A DNA stretch of 64,000 nt, from NCBI GenBank assembly GCA_963514005.1, contig OY740789.1, forward strand, positions 51,398,001 to 51,462,000, read 5' to 3'. This document shows, in pieces, positions 28,671 to 58,000 of the stretch (the first letter of the stretch is position 1; each line of letters starts with the position of its first letter). This stretch comes from Raja brachyura. Lineage: Eukaryota. A program made the translations under genes and the position numbers. The notes under the pieces were generated by a model that did no database searches, was not told the origin of the DNA, and saw nothing but the letters and a program-made list of their open reading frames with translations.

Positions 28671-28899
28671 TTTTTTCATATTCTTTCCTTGGTTGTGTGC
28701 TGCTGGTAGACGTCAGTTAATGCATTGTGTGAGGGTGCACATGATGAAACAGATCACAGGTTAGGGGCGGCAATCACTCATACATTTTCAAAGTTAGGAG
28801 GTATTTAATTTGATGGGTTTCACTTGACCTGTTTACCAGGTCATCACGGGAAAGCCATGGAGACAGTCTATGGTCCATGATGGTGCCGTGTTGTATGAT

Positions 28900-31456
28900 C
28901 TCGAGACATGCAGGTAGACTGGGAAAATCAGGTTAGTACTGGACCCCAAGAAAGGGACTTTGTAGAGTGCCTTTGTGATGGATTCTTAGAACAGCTTGTA
29001 TTGGAGCCTACCAGGGAGAAGGCAATTCTGGATTTAGTGTTATGTAATGAACCGGATTTGATAAAGGACCTCGAGGTTAATGAGCCATTTGGAGGCAGTG
29101 ACCATAACATGGTCAGCTTTAATCTACAATTGGAGAGGGGGAAGGGTAGATCGGAGGTGCCAATGTTGCAGTTGAACAAAGGGGACTATGGGGCCATGAG
29201 TGAGGAGCTGGCCAAAGTTGACTGGAAAGATGCACTAGCAGGGATGGCAGTGGAACAAAAATGGCAGGTGTTTTTAGGAATAATACAGAAGGTGCGGGAT
29301 CAGTTCATTCCTAGGAGGAAGAAAGATTCTAAGGGGAGAAAGGGTCAACCATGGCTGACAAGGGGCGTCAGGGACAGTATAAACATTAAAACGAAGAAGT
29401 ACAACATAGTAATGATGAGCGGGAAGCAAGAGGATGGGGTAATGTTTAAAGAACAACAGAAGATAACCAAAACGATAATACAGGAAGAAAAGATGAGGTA
29501 TGAAGGTAAGCTAGCCAAGAATATGAAGCAGGATAGTAAAAGCTTCTTTAGGTATGTGAAGAGGAAACAATGAATTGGTTACGACCAAAGTTGGACCCTT
29601 GAAGACCAAAAAAGGTGAATTTATTATGGGGAACAAGGAAATGGCAGATGAGTTGAACAGGTACTTTGGATCTGTCTTAACTAAGGAGGACACAAACAAT
29701 CTTCCTGATATAGTAGTGGCCAGAGGATCTGGGGTGACAGAGGAACTGAAGGAAATCCACATTAGGCAGGAAATTGTGTTGGATAGACTGATGGGACTGA
29801 AGGCTGATAAATCCCCAGGGTCTGCATCCCAGGGTACTTAAGGAAGTGGCTCTAGAAATCGTGGATGCATTGGTGATAATTTTCCAATGTTCTATAGACT
29901 CAGGATCAGTTCCTGTGGATTGGAGGGTAGCTAATGTTATCCCACTTTTTAAGAAAGGCGGGAGAGAGAAAACAGGGAATTATAAAAGATGAAATAGCGG
30001 CTTATTTGGATAGCAGCAACACGACCGGTCCGAGTCAGCATGGATTTACGAAGAGGATATCATGCTTGACTAATAATCTTCTGGAATTTTTTGAAGATGT
30101 AACTAGGAAAATGGACAAGGGAGAGCCAGTGGATGTAGTGTACCTGGACTTTCAGAAAGCATTTGATAAGGTCCCACATAGGAGATTAGTGAGCAAAATT
30201 AGGGCACATGGTATTGGGGGTAGAGTGATGACATGGATAGAGAAGTGGTTGGCAGACATGAAACAAAGAATAGGGATTAACGGGTCCCTTTCAGAATGGC
30301 AGGCAGTGACTTGTGGGGTACCGCAAGGTTCGGTGCTGGGGCCGCAGTTATTTACAATATTCATCAATGATTTGGATGAAGGGATTCAAAGTAACATTAG
30401 CACATTTGCAGATGACACAAAGCTGGGTGACAGTGTGAACTGTGAGGAGGATGCTATGAGAATGCAGGGTGAAGTGGACAGGTTGGGGAAGTGGGCAGAT
30501 GCATGGCAGATGACGTTTAATGCGGATAAATGTGAGGTTATCCACTTTGGTAGCAAAAACAGGAAGGCAGATTACTATCTAAATGGCGTCAAGTTGGGAA
30601 AATGGGAAGTATAATGGGATCTGGGGGTCCTTCCACATCAGTCTATGAAAGTAAACATGCAGGTATAGCAGGCAGTGAAGAAAACAAATGGCATGCTGGT
30701 CTTTATAACAAGAGGATTCGAATACAGGAGCAAAGATGTCCTTCTGCAGTTGTCCCCAAATTTGAGGAAGGACATTCTTGCTATTGAGGCAGTGCAGCGT
30801 AGGTTTATAAGGTTAATTCCCGGGATGGCGGGACTGTCATGTGCTGAGAGAATGGAGCAGCTGGGCTTGTACACTCTGGAGTTTAGAATGATGAGAGGGG
30901 ATCTCATTGAAACATATAAGATTGTTAAGGGTTTGGACATGCTAGAGGCAGGAAACATGTTCCCGATGTTGGGGGAGTCCAGAACCAGGGGCCACAGTTT
31001 AAGAATAAGGAGTAAGCCATTTAGAACGGAGACGAGGAAACACTTTTTCTCACAGAGAGTGGTGAGTCTGTGGAATTCTCCGCCACAGATGACGGTGGAG
31101 GCAGGTTCTCTGAATGCTTTCAAGAGAGAGCTAGATAGGGCTCTTAAAATTATGGTAGTCAGGGGATATGGGGAGAAGGCAGGAACGGGGTACTGATTGG
31201 GGATGATCAGCCATGATCACATTGAATGGCGGTGCTGGCTCGAAGGGCCGAATGGCCTACTCCTGCACCACCATTCAATGTGATCATGGCTGATCATCCC
31301 CAATCAGTACCCCGTTCCTGCCTTCTCCCCATATCCCCTGACTGCCCAATTTTTAAGAGCCCTATCTAGCTCTCTCTTGAAAGCATTCAGAGAACCTGCC
31401 TCCACCACATGGCTTCCTACTCCTACTACTCTATTGTCTATTGCTTATTGTCTATT
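28900..31456 (+). mobile_element. CR1 LINE, 5'-truncated, frameshifted ORF2 (endonuclease end and RT)
   Basis: ORFs 28908, 29575, 29934 and 30675 carry PTREKAILDLVL, SDHN, YLDFQKAFDKVPH, GVPQGSVLGP and FADD motifs. (CTATTGT)n tail. Confidence 0.95.
31094..31406. repeat. ~142-bp inverted duplication inside the CR1 3' end
   Basis: 31265-31406 is the reverse complement of 31094-31235 with a few mismatches. Confidence 0.9.
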
Positions 31457-38352: not shown

Positions 38353-41300
38353 TCAGATTCAGATTCAGATTCAGATTCAATTTTATTGTCATTGCACTTT
38401 TCAGTGCAACAAAATGGTTTAGCCTGCAGTCATACAGAATAAATAACAAAACACACACTCAACAGTTTAACATCCACCACAGTGAGTCCACCAGGCAGCT
38501 CCTCACTGTGATAGAAACATAGAAATTAGGTGCAGGAGTAGGCCATTTGGCCCTTCGAGCCTGCACCGCCATTCAATATGATCATGGCTGATCATCCAAC
38601 TCAGTATCCCGTACCTGCCTTCTCTCCATACCCTCTGATCCCCTTAGCCACAAGGGCCACATCTAACTCCCTCTTAAATATTGCCAATGAACTGGCCTCA
38701 ACTACCCTCTGTGGCAGAGAGTTCCAGAGACCCACCACTCTCTGTGTGAAAAAAGTCCTTCTCATCTCGGTCCTAAAGGATTTCCCCCTTATCCTTAAGC
38801 TGTGACCCCTTGTCCTGGACCTCCCCAACATCGGGAACAATCTTCCTGCATCTAGCCTGTCCAACCCCTTAAGAATTTTGTAAGTTTCTATAAGATCGCC
38901 TCTCAATCTCCTAAATTCTAGAGAGTATAAACCGAGTCTATGCAGTCTTTGTTCATAAGACAGTCCTGACATCCCAGGAATCAGTCTGGTGAACCTTTTC
39001 TGCACTCCCTCTATGGCAATAATGTCCTTCCTCAGATTTGGAGACCAGAACTGTACGCAATACTCCAGGTGTGGTCTCACCCAGACCCTATACAACTGAA
39101 GTACAACCTCCCTGCTCCTATACTCAAATCCTTTTGCTATGAAAGCTAACATACCATTTGCTTTCTTCACTGCCTGCTGCACCTGCATGCCTACTTTCAA
39201 TGACTGGTGTACCATGACACCCAGGTCACGCTGCATCTCCCCTTTTCCTAATCAGCCTCCATTTAGATAATAGTCTGTCTTCCTATTTTTGCCACCAAAG
39301 TGGATAACCTCACATTTATCCACATTATACTGCATCTGCCAAACATTTGCCCACTCACCCAGCCTATCCAAGTCACCTTGCATTCTTCTAGCATCCTCCT
39401 CACAGCTAACACTGCCCCCCAGCTTAGTGTTATCCGCAAACTTGGAGATATTGCCTTCAATTCCCTCATCCAGATCATTAATGTATATTGTAAATAGCTG
39501 GGGTCCCAGCACTGAGCCTTGCGGTACCCCACTAGTCACTGCCTGCCATTGTGAAAACGACCCGTTTACTCCTACTCTTTGCTTCCTGTTTGCCAGCCAG
39601 TTCTCTATCCACATCAATACTGAACTCCCAATGCCATATGCTTTAAGTTTATATACTAATCTCTTATGTGGGACCTTGTCGAAAGCCTTCTGAAAGTCCA
39701 GATACACCACATCCACTGGTTCTCCCCTATCCATGCAACTAGTTACATCCTCGACAAATTCCACAAGATTCATCAGACATGATTTACCTTTCGTAAATCC
39801 ATGCTGACTTTGTCCAATGATTTCACCTCTTTCCAAATGTGCTGCTATCCCATCTTTAATAACTGACTCTAGCAGTTTTCCCACTACCGATGTTAGACTA
39901 ACTGGTCTGTAATTCCCCGTTTTCTCTCTCCCCCCTTTCTTAAAAAGAGGGGTTACGTTTGCTATCCGCCAATCCTCAGGAACTACTCCAGAATCTAAAG
40001 AGTTTTGAAAGATTATCACTAATGCATCCACTATTTCTGGTATTCCTTAAGTACTCTGGGATGCAGCCTATCTGGCCCTGGAGATTTATCGGCCTTTAAT
40101 CCATTCAATTTACCCAACACCACTTCCCGACTAACCTGGATTTCACTCAAGTCCTCCTTTGACCCGCGGTCCCCTGCTATTTCCGGCAGATTATTTATGT
40201 CTTCCTTAGTGAAGATGGAACCAAAGTAGTTATTCAATTGGTCCGCCATATCCTTGTTCCCCATGATCAACTCACCTGTTTCTGACTGCAAGGGACCTAC
40301 ATTTGTTTTAACTAATCTCTTTCTCTTCACATATCTATAAAAACTTTTGCAGTCAGTTTTTATGCTCCCTGCCAGTTTTCTTTCATAATCTATTTTTCCT
40401 TTCCTAATCAAGCCCTTTGTCCTCCTCTGCTGGCCTCTGAATTTCTCCCAGTCCTCTGGTATGCTGCTTTTTCTGGCTACTTTGTACGCATCATCCTTTG
40501 CTTTGATACTATCCCTGATTTCCCTTGTTATCCACGGATGCACTACCTTCCCTGATCTATTCTTTTGCCAAACTGGGATGAACAATTTTTGTAGTTCATC
40601 CATGCAGTCTTTAAATGTCTTCCATTGCGTATCCACCGTCAACCCTTTTAGAATTGATTGCCAGTCAATCTTGGCCAATTCACGTCTCATACCCTCAAAG
40701 TTACCTTTCCTTAAGTTCAGAACCATTGTTTCTGAATTAACAATGTCACTCTCCATCCTAATGAAGAACTCGACCATATTATGGTCACTCTTGCCCAAGG
40801 GGGCATGCACAATAAGACTGCTAACTAACCCTTCCTCATTACTCAATACCCAGTCTAAAATAGCCTGCTCTCTCGTTGGTTCCTCTACATGTTGATTTAG
40901 ATAACTATCCCGCATACTTTCCAAAAAATCCTCTTCATCAGCGCCCCCGCCAAAAGTCCCAAAAAGTCCGAAAGTCCCTATCCCAAGGCAAAAGTCCCAA
41001 AATCCCTATCTCTTCCCTCCTTGCTCCCCCTCTGTGCTGAGGTGATCCAGGCCTCCGATATTGTAACCCCGCCGGGTGATGGCAAGCAAGTCCCGCGGCT
41101 GAATCCGAGCTCCGCGAACGGGCTGGTACAAACTCCGCGGCCCGGGGCGGTCAAAGCTGCCGAAGCTGCCACGGAGTTTGCTGTTGTTGAGGGGCGGACG
41201 AAGCCGTTGTTGAGGGAGCTCTGGAAAAACAGGTCACTAATCTGTGACCTGCAAGCTCCCGACGATGATGTTGTCCACTGGCCCGCGGCCGAAACCAGTG

Positions 41301-48045: not shown

Positions 48046-48969
48046 ATTAATCAGTCTGGAAAGCATAACATATAGGGAAAAAGGTGGACACAGAATTGCT
48101 GAAATCCATGTGCAATTTTATTCCTGGTTGCAGAAGGATAACTATTTTGGTAATTAACAGTGAAAATGTTTTTCTAAAATGCCATATGCAACTCCTGACT
48201 TTTTTTTTTAAGATTGTGCATGGGATCTTTTTCATTACCAGCAGAGGGTCACGCTTTCAAAATACATCATATTGTTATATTGTGGCATATTGTTTCCAAA
48301 CAAGGATTTATAAGAGAGAGGCAAATTCCCCGATTATAATATTCCAAATTCTCAATTCAAGAACTGCTATTAGATGAAATAAAATGCACATGCTGTTTAG
48401 CTAGTCAACAAATCTGAAAATTAGTGTTCAGTTAGTCTAATAAATATTATAGGGGAAATTACAGATATCCAGAAGTTGGAACTGAAATGTATATATTGTA
48501 TGAGCGTTGAACAATACAACACAGGAACATGCCTCTTCAGAACAGCTTTGGCCCCACTGCTATCAGACTTTTGAACCAATCACCTCTTCTACGACCTTTT
48601 TCCCCCCCAAAGGTACTGCAACACACTCTTTACCTAATTCAAATACAGTGAACCCTCATTTTAACGGACCTCTTTATTGCAGATTTCGGTTAAACGGGAT
48701 AGACCTAGAAACATCGAAAAATAGGTGCAGGAGTAGACCATTTAGCCCTTTGAGCCAGCACCACCATTCAATATGATCATGGCTGATCATCTAAAATCAG
48801 TACCTTATTCCTGCTTTTCCCCCCATATCCCTTGACTCATTTTGCCCTGAGGTAAATTAAACTTTCTCTTGAAAAGATCCAGTGAATTGGCCTACACTGC
48901 TTTCTGTGGCAGAGAATTCCACAGATTCACAACTCTCTGGGTGGAAAGGTTTTTCCTATTCTCAGTTCT

Positions 48970-49103
48970 TCTTCTTTCATGTGGCGTGCACAGCCTAAAG
49001 TCGTTGGACAACTTGTTCTATTTGATCTTCCGTTTGCGCACGTCAAGTTGATTGCATTAGTCGAAACAGGGTTGACCACGTGAAGGTTGCAATCTTCCAC
49101 CCC
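48970..49103 (-). mobile_element. 134-bp non-autonomous retroposon with ribozyme head and (AAG)n tail
   Basis: TSD TTCTCAGTTCT (11 bp exact; 15 bp with 2 mismatches at 48955-48969 / 49104-49118). 3' end GCACGCCACATGAAAGAAGAAG. No tRNA head. Confidence 0.85.
49050..49103 (-). ncRNA. HDV-like self-cleaving ribozyme (minimal P4)
   Basis: GGGGTGG-AA-GATTGCA-ACC-TTCACGT-GGT-CAACCCT-GT-TTCGA-CTAA-TGCAATC fits P1 (G1.U wobble, 6/7), P2 (7/7), P3 (3/3), L3, one P1.1 C-G pair and the J4/2 catalytic C. Confidence 0.8.
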
Positions 49104-49140
49104 CATCTTCTCAGTTCTAAATGGCCTACCCCTTATTCTT

Positions 49141-50212: not shown

Positions 50213-51066
50213 TACTTATACAATGATAATACCTTCCTTGATTATAGCGGACAATCGGCAATAACAGACCCCTTCTTCCCTCCCTCCCCCCCATGGTCCG
50301 TTATATTGAGGGTTTACGGTTATTGAACTTAAGATCTGTTTGCACTATTTCAAATTTCAACACTACTTTCACCATTCTGCTGTTTTAATTTGTCGTTATA
50401 CGCATTATATCTATCATTATCATGTATCCGTTTACTCTGAATCTGAATTTATACCCCAGTGCCATTTTCCATCAATATACCTCGATGTTTACCGGTCCTT
50501 CCAGGGAGAATACAGGTCGATAAATCCTTCGATAATCGCTCCACGCGGTTGTAATGATTAAATTAATGCAAGAGCTTACAGAAATTGTGCGCTGCACTGC
50601 AACGTCCCACAACCAGTGATCGAAATGACTGATAAGGTGGTGCTTGACGGATTAACATTGCGGCGAGGATGAGAGCTCTCCCCACTCCCCTTTGATTCAT
50701 TGAGCAGATTGATATGATTATCGCCAAAGGCAGCTTCCCAAATAGCCCCCCTATTCCCCATTGCCTGGCTGACGAATCTTCCATTAACACCTAACTAATA
50801 GTAATTCAGGAGCCTGAAGGGTCCCAACCAGAAACATCACCTTTCCACGTCCTCCAGAAACTCTGCCGGACAGCACCGAGTTACTCCAGCACCAAAGGAC
50901 ACAAACTACCGCATGAACTCAGCGGGTCTCTGGTGATGTTCCGGGACTGGACCCTTTCACTACGAGTTACTCCAACACTGTGTGTCTTTTAAAAAACTAA
51001 TTGTAAACCTCATTTCACCATTTCTGGCGACGCTGATTTTGTCATGAAACCGACGTTTCTTCACCA

Positions 51067-52674
51067 GAGGGGCGTGACGTAGCGGGGCGTGGCGCTTGGG
51101 GGCGTGACGTAGAGGGGCGTGACGCACGCGGGCGTGGCGCTGTGGGCGCGACGTGGCGGGGCGTGGCGCACGGGGGCGTGGCGCTGTGGGCGTGACGTAG
51201 AGGGGCGTGGCGCACGGGGGCGTGGCGTAACGGGGCGTGATGCACGGGGGCGTGACGCTGGGGGCGTGGTGCACGGGGCGTGGTGCACGGGGCGTGACGC
51301 TGGGGGCGTGGTGCACGGGGCGTGGTGCACGGGGCGTGACGCTGGGGGCGTGGTGCACGGGGCGTGACGCTGGGGGCGTGGTGCACTGGGCGTGGCGCTG
51401 GGGGCGTGGTGCACGGCGCGTGGTGCACGGGGCGTGGCGCTGGGGGCGTGGTGCACGGGGCGTGGCGCTGGGGGCGTGGTGCACGGCGCGTGGTGCACGT
51501 GGCGCTGGGGCGTGGTACACGGGGCGTGGCGCTGGGGGGCATGGTTCCCGGGACGTGACGCTCGGGGGCGTGACGCTCGGGGGCGTGGTGCACGGGGCGT
51601 GGTGCACGGGGCGTGGCGCTGCGGGCGTGGTGCACGGGGCGTGACGCTGGGGGCGTGGCGCTGGGGGCGTTGTACACGGGGCGTAGCGCTGGGGGGCATG
51701 GTTCCCGGGACGTGACGCTCGGGGGCGTGGTGCACGGGGCGTGACGCTGAGGGGCGTGGTGCGCGGGGCGTGGTGCGCGGGGCGTGGCGCTGCGGGCGTG
51801 GTGCACGGGGCGGGACGCTAGGCGGCGTGGTGCATGGGGCGTGGCGTGGTGCACGGGGCGTGACGCTGGGGGGCGTTGCGCTGGGAGCGTGGTGCACGGG
51901 GCGTGGTGCACGGGGCGTGACGCTAGGGGGCGTGGTGCACGGGGCGTGGTGCACGGGACGTGGCGCTGGGGAGTGGTACACGGGGCGTGGAGCTGGGGGC
52001 GTGGCGCAAGGGGGCGTGGTGCACGGGGCGTGGCGCTAGGGGCGTGGTGTACGGGGCGTGGCGCTGGGGGCGTGGTGCACGGGGCGTGGCGCTGAGGGCG
52101 TGACGCACCCGGGGCGTGACGTAGCGGGGACTTGGGGGTTTGGGTTGGGGCCGTGACGCAAGGGGCGTTGTGCAATAGGGCGTGGCGCACTGGGCATGAC
52201 GTGTGTGAGGGCGTGGCGCAAGGAGCATTTGCAGGGGGCGGTGCGCAGGAGGGCGTGGGCTGGGAGGAGTGGCGCAGGGGGTTTGGGTTGGGGGCGTGAC
52301 GTAGCGGGGCGTGACGAATGGGGCGTGGCGTAGGGGTGTGTGACGTAGGGGGCGTGGACTGGGGGCGTGACGCAAGAGGGAGTGGCGCAGAGGGTCGTGA
52401 CGCAGAAGGTGTGACACAAGAGGGAGTGACGTAGTGTGGCGTGACGCATGGGGCGTGCCGCAGGGGGCGTGGCGTAGGTGGCGAGACGCAGGGGGTGTGG
52501 CGCAGTGGGGCGTGCGCAGTGGGGGCGTGGCGCATGGGGCGTGGCGTAGGGGAGTGGCGCAGAGGGGCGTGACGCAGAAGGGTGTGTCGCAAGAGGGCGT
52601 GACGCATGAGGCGTGGGTTTGGGGGAGTGGCGTAGGGGGGCGTGACGCAGGGGGCGGGTGCGTGGCGCATGCGC
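51067..52674. repeat. GC-rich variable tandem array of 14-16-bp GGGGCGTG(G/A)... units
   Basis: Roughly 100 units such as GGGGCGTGGTGCAC, GGGGCGTGACGCTG and GGGGCGTGACGTAG, with higher-order duplications (GGCATGGTTCCCGGGACGTGACGCTC twice). Confidence 0.95.
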
Positions 52675-53700
52675 GGGTAGGTAGCGAGCGTGGCTCTGGC
52701 GGTGCTGTTGCTCGGAGACCACCGGCCTCTGGCAGCAAGTGGCAGCTTCGCCCCGCCCGCACAACAGAGAGCCAGCCCGGCCTCTGGATAAGGACTGCTC
52801 GAGTGAGCACAGAACTGTTTACGGTTAAGTTTTTTTCTTGCACACCTGCGGACCAGTCTGCCGGTAGGTTGGAGGGGATGGTGGTGAGTAAGCTGAGTGA
52901 GTGAGTGAGTGGAAGGGACGGAGGTGAAGGGGGCAGAGGTGAGGGGGGAAGGGAAGGGAGATGTGAAGTCGTGGGGAGAGGGGTGGAGGGGGAGGGTATG
53001 TGTGCGGGAGATGGGTGTGCAGAGGGGTGGGTTAAGGTGGGTGGGTGAAGGCGTGGAGACAGGGGTGTGTGTGCAGGAAGATGGGTGGGCAGAGGTGGGT
53101 GGATGCAGGAAGGTGGTGATTGACTGTAAACTGCGGCTGCAGTTTCTGATCACTTGCCGTTGGGGACTGGGGCAGCAAAGCAAAAGTAAACGGGAGCAGA
53201 ACTTGGGGAAAGGAAAGGCGTTTGGTAAGTCAGAAATCCTGCAAATTGCCCTGAACTTCTTTGAAAGACACAGATTAGAAATGCAATCTTGCTCGGTGGC
53301 GGAACTGGGTTTTTTGCTCGTCTGCCTGTTAACAACATTTAGTCAAGACCGCTCAAACCCTCCCAGGAACGATGCGACACTTTCGAGACCGAGGGGGGCA
53401 AAGTCAGCCGTGTTCAGGAAAGCGTGAAAAAAATAGTTTAGAGTGGATTTATAAACTCACCGGAAAAGTGTTGCGGAAATCAGTTTTCAGTTGAAGTTCG
53501 AGTCTGCTGGAATAGTCGCGGAACCTGGTGCGTAGTGATTACTTTGAGTTTTCTAGTGACTGGTTGAAGGCTTTTTTTGCTAATCGTCAGTTCGAGACCA
53601 TTGCAATTCTAATTCATGAGTCCGTCAGCTGCATGCCTTGCATTCCTCTTCACAAGGCACCGTGATCAGAAATGCAGCGGCGACTGTAAGTTTCCCAGTC
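52665..53700 (+). promoter_or_regulatory. CpG-island promoter / first exon(s) of an unidentified + strand gene
   Basis: NRF1 palindrome GCGCATGCGC at 52665-52674 in CpG-rich unique sequence. Splice donors CCG|GTAGGT (52864), TTG|GTAAGT (53225), CTG|GTGCGT (53528) and ACT|GTAAGT (53686). Confidence 0.65.
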
Positions 53701-55011: not shown

Positions 55012-58000
55012 GATGGAAAGAGCCAAGTTCTTCGCGTGTCAACAGATTCCCGATGAACCTGTTGAACAATTTATCTGTGATTTAAAATATATGGCTCAGC
55101 ATTGACGCTTCGGCAATATGTCTAATGAGTTAATACGTGACAAACTCGTCAGTGGCATGACTGATCAAAAGCTAAAGACTGAGCTGCTGCGGAATGCTGA
55201 CCTAACCCTGGAACAAGCTGTGCATGCCTGCCGCACGTCCGAGATTGTGGCCCCACTGGGCGACCAGTCTGACTCTCAGAAAAAGTGTATAAACCTGACA
55301 GGCTTCAATAAACGAGCTCCGGGTGTGCATTAACCCAAGAGACCTAAACACTGCCATCAAGCGACGACATTATCCGATGAGAAATGTCGAAGAAGCTGCC
55401 CAAATCGGTCGAGCAGCACTGTTTTCTGTACTAGACGCAAAAAGCTCGTTCTGGCAGATACCTCTGGATGACGCGTCCTCGAACCTCACCACGTTTGGCA
55501 CACAATTTGGCAGATTCAAATTTCTCAGAATGCCATTTGGTATCAATTCGGCCAGCAAAGTTTTTCAGGAAACCATGGAACAGCTGCTCACAGGCTTCCC
55601 ATGCGCCATCATCGTAGATGACATCCTGGTTTATGGCAAAGACATTGCGGAGCACAACTACAACCATAAGCAGATTCTAGACAGGGCATGCGAGATTAAC
55701 TTGAAGTTCATCCCCAAGAAGTGCAAGTTCCACGTCCCGGAGGTCACCTATGTTGGACATGTATTCACTAGCAATGGTCTGAAGCCAGATCCGAAGAAAA
55801 CTGCAGCCATCCAGGAAATGCCTGCCCTTGCCGAAGTACACACCTACAACGATTTATGGGCATGGTGAACTTTCTGGGATTTTCCAACATACTGAATGGA
55901 CCTGGTACCAGCAGCACCAAAGGCGTTCGACACTTTAAAACTACAGCTGGCCAGTGTTCCTACATTGACATACTTTGACCTGAAGCGACCTGTCACAGTA
56001 ACCTGCGATGCCTCACAATACGGGCTAGGCGCAGCCTGCCTTCAGACATCTGCCGACGGCATTATACTACCGGTATCTCGCACCATGACGGACACCGAAC
56101 AACATTATGCCCAAATCGAGAAGGAGCTACTAACCGTGGTCTTTGCATGCTCCAAAGTTTAAAGACTTCGTCATTGGGAACACTTTCGTCAGGTTGAAAC
56201 CGACCACCAATCTCTCGTAACCATCCTGAACAAGCCCATCCATGCAGCACCTGCACGTTTGCAGCGTATGATGATGCAGCTTCAGCGGTTCGACTTCAGA
56301 ATCGTTTACAAAAAAGGAAAGGACATGCTTGTTGCCGATACTCTCTCTCGTGCACCACGTGCATCCATAGGAGTGTGATGAGCTCACTGTTCTTAAGGCT
56401 GACTTCGTTCCCACGGAACGTCTGCGTCGCTTGGCTGCTCACATAACCGCTGACGGGACTCTACAGCTGCTCTTATCCATCGTTAAAAAAGGCTGGACTG
56501 AAAGACAATCCAGCACCCCACTGGAGGTACAGCCATTCTTCCTAGAGTTAGTAATACAAGGGCCATCATCGTCAAGGGCCACAAAGTCGTGATCCCATCA
56601 TCCTTACGAGACAAATACTACAAAGAGGTGCACAACGGTCACCCAGGCACTGAAGCCACACTTGCCCATTCACAGAGCATGTTCTACTGGCCGGGGATGT
56701 CTAAGTACATATGGGACAGGACGGCATCCTGCTCTATCGGCAACAGCCTAGCACCTCACCAGCAGAAACAGCCTTTACTGCAACAACCTCCTCCAGCACT
56801 ACCTTGGACATCCGTTGCAGCGTACCTTTTCAAATGGCACGGCACACACTACTTAGTCCTCGTAGACTCATACGCCAACTGGTTTGAACTTGACTTGCTA
56901 CCCGCCATCACATCCGAGATGGTTATACAAAAGCTTCGGAGACATTTTTCCGTATTCGGCGCACCAGTCCGCCTACAAACTGACAACGGACGATAATTCA
57001 CCAGTCAGGCTTTTAAAAACTTTGCCAGTCGATGGAACTTCCACCACGTCACAAGCAGCCCTGAGTGTCCCCAATCCAACGGCCTCGCTGAACGTGCTGT
57101 CAGGAGTGCAAAACAACTGATGGAACTTTCTCATCTTGCCAAGTCTGATGTCTACCTCGACCTCCTTAATTTGAGAAATATTTCCAGGGACGGGATCCTG
57201 GACTCTCCTGCTCAATGGCTGATTTCTCGTACAACACGGCCTCCACTGCCCGTTGCCCAGCAACAGCTGAAACCTCAAGTGTTTAAACCAGTGGCGGTCC
57301 AGAAGGGACACGATATTCAGAAGCGCTCAAGTTCAGAAGCGACAAGTCCAGCAGACCACTAAAGCCGCTGATACAGGCTAAAGTGGGCCGTTTTCAGACT
57401 GCCGTGGGACATTCCCATTTGGGGTTCGTTGAAGGACCATCAAAGGAACCCTGTTCCTACCTTGTCAACGCCGATGGTGCACTGTACTGGCGCAGACGTC
57501 AACATCTCCTGCTCCTGAAAGAACCTCGACCAGCTCCCACCAGCCCATATGCACCGCCTTTGCCGTTTAAGCCTTCTGCTGCCCCTGCTCTCCCCGTCCC
57601 AGCATGCCACCTCCGCCTTAGTCGGTTACCCCATCCACCCACGTTAACACTCCTGCATGCTCACCCCGCCGGTCTCTGCATGTGTCGCTGACCGCCGTAC
57701 CCCTTCCTGGTTCCCCGCCTGCCAGCCCCGCTAACCTTTCTGATGGGGAGGGAGAGGGGTTTGTCCGTACGCGTTCGGGTCGCATCAGTAGACCACCTGA
57801 CAGGTACGTCGAGTATGTTTAACCGTATGCATTTAACATATGTTCAACAACCTTTCTCTTTACGGAGAAGGATGTAGATTGTTTATTGCATGTGAACCAA
57901 TCAGAATAGTGTAGCATCACTAACTCCACCTCACTATACACTTTATATTAACACCCATTTCCTATGTTCCTAGTTATACCAGCGGTTACAATGAACTAAC

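Follow-up and report, generated by a model that had tools for sequence, protein, structure and literature searches.

A Vingi-like retroposon with a predicted minimal HDV-like ribozyme in Raja brachyura, and the likely transposon origin of the mammalian CPEB3 ribozyme

The window analysed here is a stretch of 64,000 nt of the 2.70-Gb genome of Raja brachyura. On its minus strand, at positions 48970..49103, lies a 134-bp element that we numbered from nt 1 = 49103 and whose family we named family A. A preliminary description of this DNA had parsed the first 54 nt of the element as a compact ribozyme of the hepatitis delta virus (HDV) type at the head of a retroposon, and we found all the strands as described there, including the C at 49060. 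The features are listed below; LINE stands for long interspersed nuclear element, ORF for open reading frame and UTR for untranslated region.

48970..49103, minus strand: whole element of family A, 134 bp, read as a non-autonomous two-part (internally deleted) Vingi-like retroposon
49050..49103, minus strand: predicted HDV-like ribozyme fold without P4, 54 nt; G1 at 49103 is base 1 of the element
49097..49103, minus strand: P1 5' strand, nt 1-7, pairs with 49074-49068
49088..49094, minus strand: P2 5' strand, nt 10-16, pairs with 49056-49050
49075..49087, minus strand: P3 and L3, nt 17-29; L3 is identical to that of the Rfam CPEB3 consensus
49068..49074, minus strand: P1 3' strand, nt 30-36; one pair is lost through a C>A change at 49073 that is private to this copy
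49061..49067, minus strand: J1/4 (one C-G P1.1 pair, U.U) and the 5-nt linker replacing P4
49057..49060, minus strand: J4/2, with the predicted catalytic C at 49060 (C44); nt 45 is T or G across copies
49050..49056, minus strand: P2 3' strand, nt 48-54
49032..49049, minus strand: remainder of the LINE 5'-end part, nt 55-72, containing the 5' arm of an 8-bp end-to-end stem
49012..49031, minus strand: junction region, nt 73-92, partially like the following bases of the LINE 5' UTR (compared by eye)
48970..49011, minus strand: LINE 3'-end part, with the final ORF codons, a short 3' UTR holding the 3' stem arm, and an (AAG)n tail
48997-48995, minus strand: stop codon inside the LINE 3'-end part
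49108..49118, minus strand: upstream copy of the target-site duplication, 11 bp exact (15 bp, up to 49104, with 2 mismatches)
48959..48969, minus strand: downstream copy of the target-site duplication
48700..49140 (approximate bounds), minus strand: host repeat that received the insertion, the 3' end of a common LINE in the same orientation

The fold was searched for with a hand-written HDV-like descriptor, in a strict and a relaxed version. In the 128 kb made up by both strands of the window we observed a single match, at 49103 on the minus strand. Shuffled windows gave 4 matches to the relaxed descriptor in 768 kb; in 2.56 Mb of shuffled sequence the relaxed version found 3 and the strict one 1, all lower-scoring and less compact than the window fold. 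The element displays the nested double pseudoknot of P1, P2, P3 and P1.1, a C in J4/2 followed by A's, and a paired G1 at the predicted cut site, this pair being G1.U in 30 of 33 copies and G1-C in the other 3. It has no P4 stem, only the 5-nt linker, and minimal members of the HDV-like class are also devoid of P4. The G-A mismatch that had been noted in P1 is indeed present, but it is a mutation private to the window copy: the pair is kept in 32 of 34 sampled copies and in 274 of the 293 RNA reads at 49073. Since P1 of the CPEB3 ribozyme is described as especially sensitive to mutation (PMC9901934), the window copy, with its broken pair, is probably impaired, slow or dead.

With its length of 54 nt and its lack of P4, the family A head is similar to the minimal HDV-like ribozymes (theta, drz-Mtgn-1; ~54 nt). 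However, nearly 99% of these are reported from gut phages, often beside tRNAs, whereas here the fold heads an animal retroposon (PMC10879173). A theta ribozyme lies in a phage genome with its cut site beside a tRNA; the present genome has a size of 2.7 Gb and the window contains no tRNA.

The element is a member of a multi-copy retroposon family, as previously proposed: the genome contains 5,236 exact matches to nt 1-24 (control, 0), and 40 of 40 scored genome-search matches are 96-100% identical across 132-134 nt. A 17-nt tail motif is accompanied by the head GG at the expected spacing in 4,722 cases (first class) and by neither head base in 2,078 (second class), a mixed class standing outside this count. 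The alignments start at nt 1 in 30/30 top copies, which were chosen by likeness, and in 27/30 copies of the first class, a sample in which 7 copies come from one duplicated block and another two form a pair; in the second class they start at nt 1 in 13/30 and at nt 1-4 in 16/30. The data suggest that about 80% of the family A copies are full-length. Target-site duplications of 8-16 bp were detected in 29/30 top copies, 25/30 of the first class and 15/30 of the second, mostly within one base of G1, against 0/53 in a mismatched-flank control. The expected pile-up of 5' ends at G1 is thus seen in the alignments as well as in the duplications adjoining G1, and the copies of family A are dispersed, end in a simple-repeat tail and bear target-site duplications. 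For the window copy itself, the proposed 15-bp duplication is real, 11 bp of it being exact; the full 15 bp are reached only with 2 mismatches.

Pairwise divergence is 8.1% in a younger subfamily and 14% in an older group. The changes between subfamilies preserve pairing or sit in loops (U5-A32 to U5.G32; T/G at nt 45 in J4/2). We also noticed, at G000:C1:14794434-14952007, a tandem block of ~12-kb units, each with two inverted copies of the element; these copies multiplied via segmental duplication and not by retroposition.

A LINE sharing both ends with the element had been suggested as something to look for, and it was found. Five tail matches with a different upstream sequence, which reads as the end of an ORF, pointed to L071 (L numbers designate loci), a decayed LINE of ~3.1 kb with a single ORF. 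Its 5' end matches element nt 9-72, and nt 104-134 are matched ~3.1 kb further; other copies of this LINE carry the 3' match on to nt 93, many more begin with the same head as the element, and the copies diverge by 9.8%. The element is composed of LINE nt 1-72, a junction of ~20 nt and the last ~40 nt; both ends are common to one autonomous LINE, the middle being deleted, and alternative deletion breakpoints were observed at L066-L068. Because a LINE of the same genome has the same head and the same tail, the element is an internally deleted non-autonomous LINE, which is a known kind, and not an independent short interspersed nuclear element (SINE). The earlier idea of a reverse transcriptase (RT) borrowed from an RTE- or Ingi/Vingi-type element holds as regards an Ingi/Vingi-type protein; the element is nevertheless a deletion derivative of the very LINE whose head it carries. 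Known bipartite non-autonomous LINEs include the Vingi-1_EE derivatives, RIME (Ingi), NARTc (L1Tc), Bov-A and R2 deletion derivatives (PMC5786205). Like them, family A keeps nothing of an autonomous LINE but its two ends, 5' and 3', and has neither ORF nor small-RNA head; unlike them, it numbers 5,000 copies or more in a genome of vertebrate size, and its head lacks P4.

At 12 loci (two of which coincide), the head is inverted and directly adjoins an inner piece of the LINE; the match begins at reference nt 8-13, as if the template had ended near G1. Such 5' inversions, in which the inverted piece reaches the head, are frequent among family A LINE copies (L077, L084, L094, L096, L098, L101, L103, L106-L110) and presumably resemble twin priming. 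Between the two retained parts we observed an 8-bp complementarity around a shared palindrome (49035-49042 with 48985-48992), which is significant both in the short element (p < 0.002) and in the LINE (0.012). Of 10 tests of the end-to-end stem, 4 were significant (two for family A, one for the short family F described below and one for the metagenomic locus L207) and 6 were not, two loci being skipped; the stem was therefore rejected as a clade-wide feature and is family-specific at most.

L071 encodes pieces of an apurinic/apyrimidinic endonuclease (APE) and of an RT. Its closest intact relative, P0001 (1,019 amino acids, 74% in the RT), has APE and RT domains, a weak match to a C-terminal zinc finger and no RNase H. 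The partner LINE is thus compact, with a single ORF for APE and RT and no RNase H, in agreement with the description of Vingi elements, which are compact and single-ORF and, unlike Ingi, lack RNase H (PMC13708176). A quick RT tree, computed without two short rows, joins family A to P0001 (support 100) and places the ORFs of family D and of L213, two relatives presented below, together with family A in a clade separate from two CR1-like rows (support 100); the ORF of a further family, C, matches the same proteins by tblastn. No relative was found in viral contigs. Since the heads of these sister families match named Vingi 5' ends, the partner LINE likely belongs to the Vingi clade.

That the partner belongs instead to RTE, Ingi or a neighbouring clade with HDV-like heads already described, only the family being new, seems to us quite improbable. 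RTE elements are also short, single-ORF, APE-RT elements and the outgroup of the tree is made of CR1-like rows only; on the other hand, the RT motifs of the partner look like those of Vingi and not of RTE. RTE elements also form two-part derivatives (PMC5786205), but the partner has no RNase H, which is the distinction made between Vingi and Ingi (PMC13708176), and its 3.1 kb are close to the 3,128 bp of Vingi-2_Gav. The match of the heads of families C-E and L213 to named Vingi 5' ends, and the single clade formed by the ORFs of family D, L213 and family A, with family C added by tblastn, also speak against it.

As had been stated, the element has no tRNA or 5S head: we found no tRNA in the window, no tRNA head on the element, no Rfam small-RNA match for it and no small-RNA-derived head with an RNA polymerase III (Pol III) promoter of the tRNA, 5S or 7SL SINE type. 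Family A could nonetheless be imagined as a usual Pol III SINE whose small-RNA head has escaped recognition and whose fold is due to chance, since weak A-box-like and B-box-like sequences can be read by eye near nt 5-16 and 38-46, each with at least two mismatches to the consensus, and the folding energy of the head is unremarkable. However, the same head begins an autonomous LINE, and the fold, with covariation, recurs at LINE 5' ends only. This reading is largely refuted by these two observations and we give it hardly any credit.

We therefore considered the heads of related LINEs and short families. Of 80 metagenomic relatives, 28 have room upstream of the ORF, and the descriptor found the fold at most 350 nt upstream of the ORF in 6 of them (4 distinct), with no match elsewhere in 674 kb; L207, L174 and L200, as well as some decayed heads, were recovered in addition by a looser scan together with visual inspection. 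Altogether, the HDV-like fold was parsed at the 5' ends of 11 related families (12 heads), whose stems differ and are nevertheless paired: P1 positions 5-7, P2, P3 and P1.1 vary on both sides, P1.1 being C-G in 10 heads and T-A in 2, and C is the first base of J4/2 in 12/12, as the parser requires. The covariation expected for P1-P3 was thus observed, by a parser that demands pairing, for which reason the weight of the comparison lies in the position of the heads and their sequence turnover. In the full-length L213 and L207, duplications adjoin G1 (by eye). Family B (L161-L172, L253-L277) is a second, younger Vingi-like LINE of the same genome, with ~41% amino acid identity; its copies are 88-95% alike and its head has T-A at P1.1 and a P4 region of 36 nt. 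Family F (L288-L297, L321-L332) is a second short family, of ~175 bp, with at least 317 exact matches, an (AAG)n tail and duplications visible by eye; its head has 5 nt in place of P4 and stems unlike those of family A. Most family F copies have a 6-bp P1 and hence are not parsed by the descriptor, which has a 7-bp P1; no partner LINE of family F was found. At L177 (~345-675), P1, P2 and J4/2 look HDV-like by eye, with a long insert between the P3 strands. As judged from these sequences, the HDV-like fold is a feature of the clade.

Taken together, we consider it probable, and with good confidence, that a 3.1-kb LINE of the same genome, likely of the Vingi clade, gave rise to the element as a two-part derivative, and that the first 54 nt of the element form a predicted minimal HDV-like ribozyme cutting just before G1. 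In such a scheme, a host or read-through transcript would run into the element and the ribozyme would cut the RNA before G1, releasing the element from the longer transcript. The retained 3' end, perhaps together with the 8-bp stem that links both parts, would then be bound in trans by the LINE protein, and the RNA would be copied back to G1 by target-primed reverse transcription, so that each new copy would retain its own ribozyme.

Several observations weigh against this reading. The descriptor had no match at 22 of the 28 eligible metagenomic loci, and the pair counts of the heads come from a parser that demands pairing. The Rfam search that had been recommended gave no match at cut-off in the window, and family A stays below all the Rfam cut-offs: the best ribozyme match, RF02682, scores 14.7 bits with the window copy and 16 bits with an intact copy, for a cut-off of 44. 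The nested folding energy of the head is no better than that of shuffles (z = 1.15 and -0.04; pseudoknots lie outside the model). All 18 pairs and the core are intact in 10 of 37 copies, taken in position order or as bystanders. The missing P4 and the one-pair P1.1 could make the family A ribozyme slow. In one polyA RNA run, possibly from another species and taken at 6% of its reads, we did not detect any pile-up of RNA ends at G1; in the same run the reads over the element favour, by ~2:1, the mate strand that is opposite to the one seen for the flanking LINE. This would point to antisense copies outnumbering sense ones in polyA RNA, but we did not count it as evidence. No intact partner ORF was found among the 150 scored of 72,878 candidates in the genome, and the quick tree, in which 34 rows group against the two CR1-like rows with a support of 100, has no named Vingi, Ingi or RTE row.

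The absence of RNA-end pile-up, the weak P1.1 and the lack of P4 would also agree with a head whose chief role, as with Pr77 of L1Tc, is that of an internal promoter, with transcription starting at G1 and a slow or vestigial P4-less fold. In L1Tc and its short derivative NARTc, the first 77 nt are both promoter and HDV-like ribozyme; as predicted here, the ribozyme is formed by the first bases of the LINE and of the derivative and cuts before +1 (PMC3383444). These are however trypanosome elements of the Ingi group, whose Pr77 is a proven promoter of 77 nt, versus 54 nt here (PMC3383444). Against a mainly promoter role, two unrelated short families, A and F, retain the P4-less fold with different stems, and the subfamily changes preserve pairing or sit in loops; extra bases at the 5' junction are G in only 2 of 8 cases of the top set (by eye), with no sign of cap copying, and promoter and cleavage can coexist. 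We regard the promoter explanation as unlikely, and self-cleavage of the family A ribozyme remains the prediction that we favour.

The preliminary description had compared the weak P1.1 with that of the CPEB3 ribozyme. This is correct, and the likeness goes further, the heads of sister families scoring as Rfam members of the CPEB3 ribozyme. The window family has the same L3 and J1/4 and the same one-pair P1.1 beside U.U, whereas its other stems differ, P4 is absent and the element is below the cut-off (35 bits) of RF00622, the Rfam model of the mammalian CPEB3 ribozyme; moreover, CPEB3 is a single conserved intronic copy, unlike the dispersed transposon heads described here. In this genome, RF00622 gave 41 matches, of which 32 are above cut-off (best, 65.8 bits), and the 30 that were inspected sort into families C, D, E and F. 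When sister loci were rescanned 9/9 passed, the sister heads scoring 35-66 bits; the cut-off is reached by heads of families C, D, E and F and by L213. The possibility that these matches are remnants in a CPEB gene was rejected, the nearest of the 41 being 3.9 Mb from a CPEB ZZ-domain locus.

Families C, D and E (L278-L287, L298-L315) are low-copy and spread across many contigs. Family C heads lead into a Vingi-like ORF at L278, L280 and L282, and at 4 of 7 other loci Vingi-like ORF pieces lie inverted beside the head, with a fifth weakly so; pieces of Vingi-like ORFs are attached to heads of families C and D alike; no ORF was found after family E heads. Family D shares the P4 stem of CPEB3. 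Among 20 metagenomic loci scanned, L213:3106-3189 (also L214 and L216) scores 55.6 bits, ~240 nt before the ORF. L213 is a full-length Vingi-like LINE with an (ATC)n tail and a duplication adjoining G1; of the 38 positions from G1 to J1/4, 35 are by eye identical to the printed Rfam consensus, and a second P1.1 pair is restored by two of the three that differ. L238 is a truncated copy at a different site, with the 3' half of the L213 head.

The 5' ends of Vingi-2_Gav, Vingi-4_Crp, Vingi-2_SPur and Vingi-1_BF are printed in the supplement of a 2018 study (PMC5786205). The heads of families C-E and of L213 match such named Vingi 5' ends, and Vingi-2_Gav, compared by eye with the CPEB3 consensus outside the upper P4, is identical at 35/37, 3/3 and 14/14 positions, i.e. 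52/54. In the same supplement, the tRNA-headed alligator SINE2-1_AMi carries a CPEB3-like Vingi head in mid-element (by eye); G1 and positions of P3/L3 are changed in this Vingi head, as though it no longer cleaved once placed after the Pol III one. We favour descent over convergence because stems that vary freely among the other heads are identical to those of CPEB3 here, even if the G-rich starts of P1 somewhat lessen the weight of shared stems. Since related elements begin with nearly the CPEB3 ribozyme sequence, the mammalian CPEB3 ribozyme likely arose from a Vingi-type transposon end. More broadly, we think it rather probable that Vingi as a clade starts with an HDV-like ribozyme, that the CPEB3 ribozyme is a Vingi head domesticated in an intron before the marsupial-placental split, and that the window family is a lineage that shrank to a 54-nt P4-less ribozyme at thousands of vertebrate sites.

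Ancient Vingi remains are reported in the human genome (PMC5753468). We found no paper joining 'CPEB3' with 'Vingi' in a search that was incomplete, and primary works may list such heads under other names. The main text of PMC5786205 does not contain 'CPEB3'; the accessible parts of PMC5786205 and PMC13708176 make no link between Vingi and ribozymes, nor do those of PMC8256844, PMC10919898 and PMC3391268 between Vingi and CPEB3. HDV-like ribozymes have been described in sea urchin, lancelet and lamprey (PMC8256844), and these may be such heads, unnamed. The general design is already known, since a review reports HDV-like or hammerhead ribozymes in some LINEs and SINEs (PMC6765202).

As regards the surroundings of the element, insertion-free copies of the host repeat are visible in RNA-read joints. 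This repeat, which we take to be CR1-like, resembles by eye the ORF end at 38601-39251 of the window. The window also contains two LINE copies that we take to be CR1-like (28899-31196 and 38601-41005), presumed RT/integrase frames of a decayed long terminal repeat retrotransposon (55299-57691) and what we take to be a GC-rich tandem repeat (50960-53342).

The element thus appears to be a Vingi-like retroposon made of two parts and headed by a minimal HDV-like fold; the two-part kind is known, and the variant with a P4-less head would be new. Vingi heads above the RF00622 cut-off offer a concrete origin and natural variants for the CPEB3 ribozyme and, if the link is true, would supply the missing outgroups for its evolution, which makes an open question on this ribozyme testable. 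Gene-insertion tools under construction incorporate Vingi-1 of the anole along with its native 5' UTR (PMC13708176), and a ribozyme in this 5' UTR, if present, would bear on template design. Finally, with thousands of predicted minimal ribozymes in one genome, it becomes testable whether copies on the sense strand cut host transcripts.
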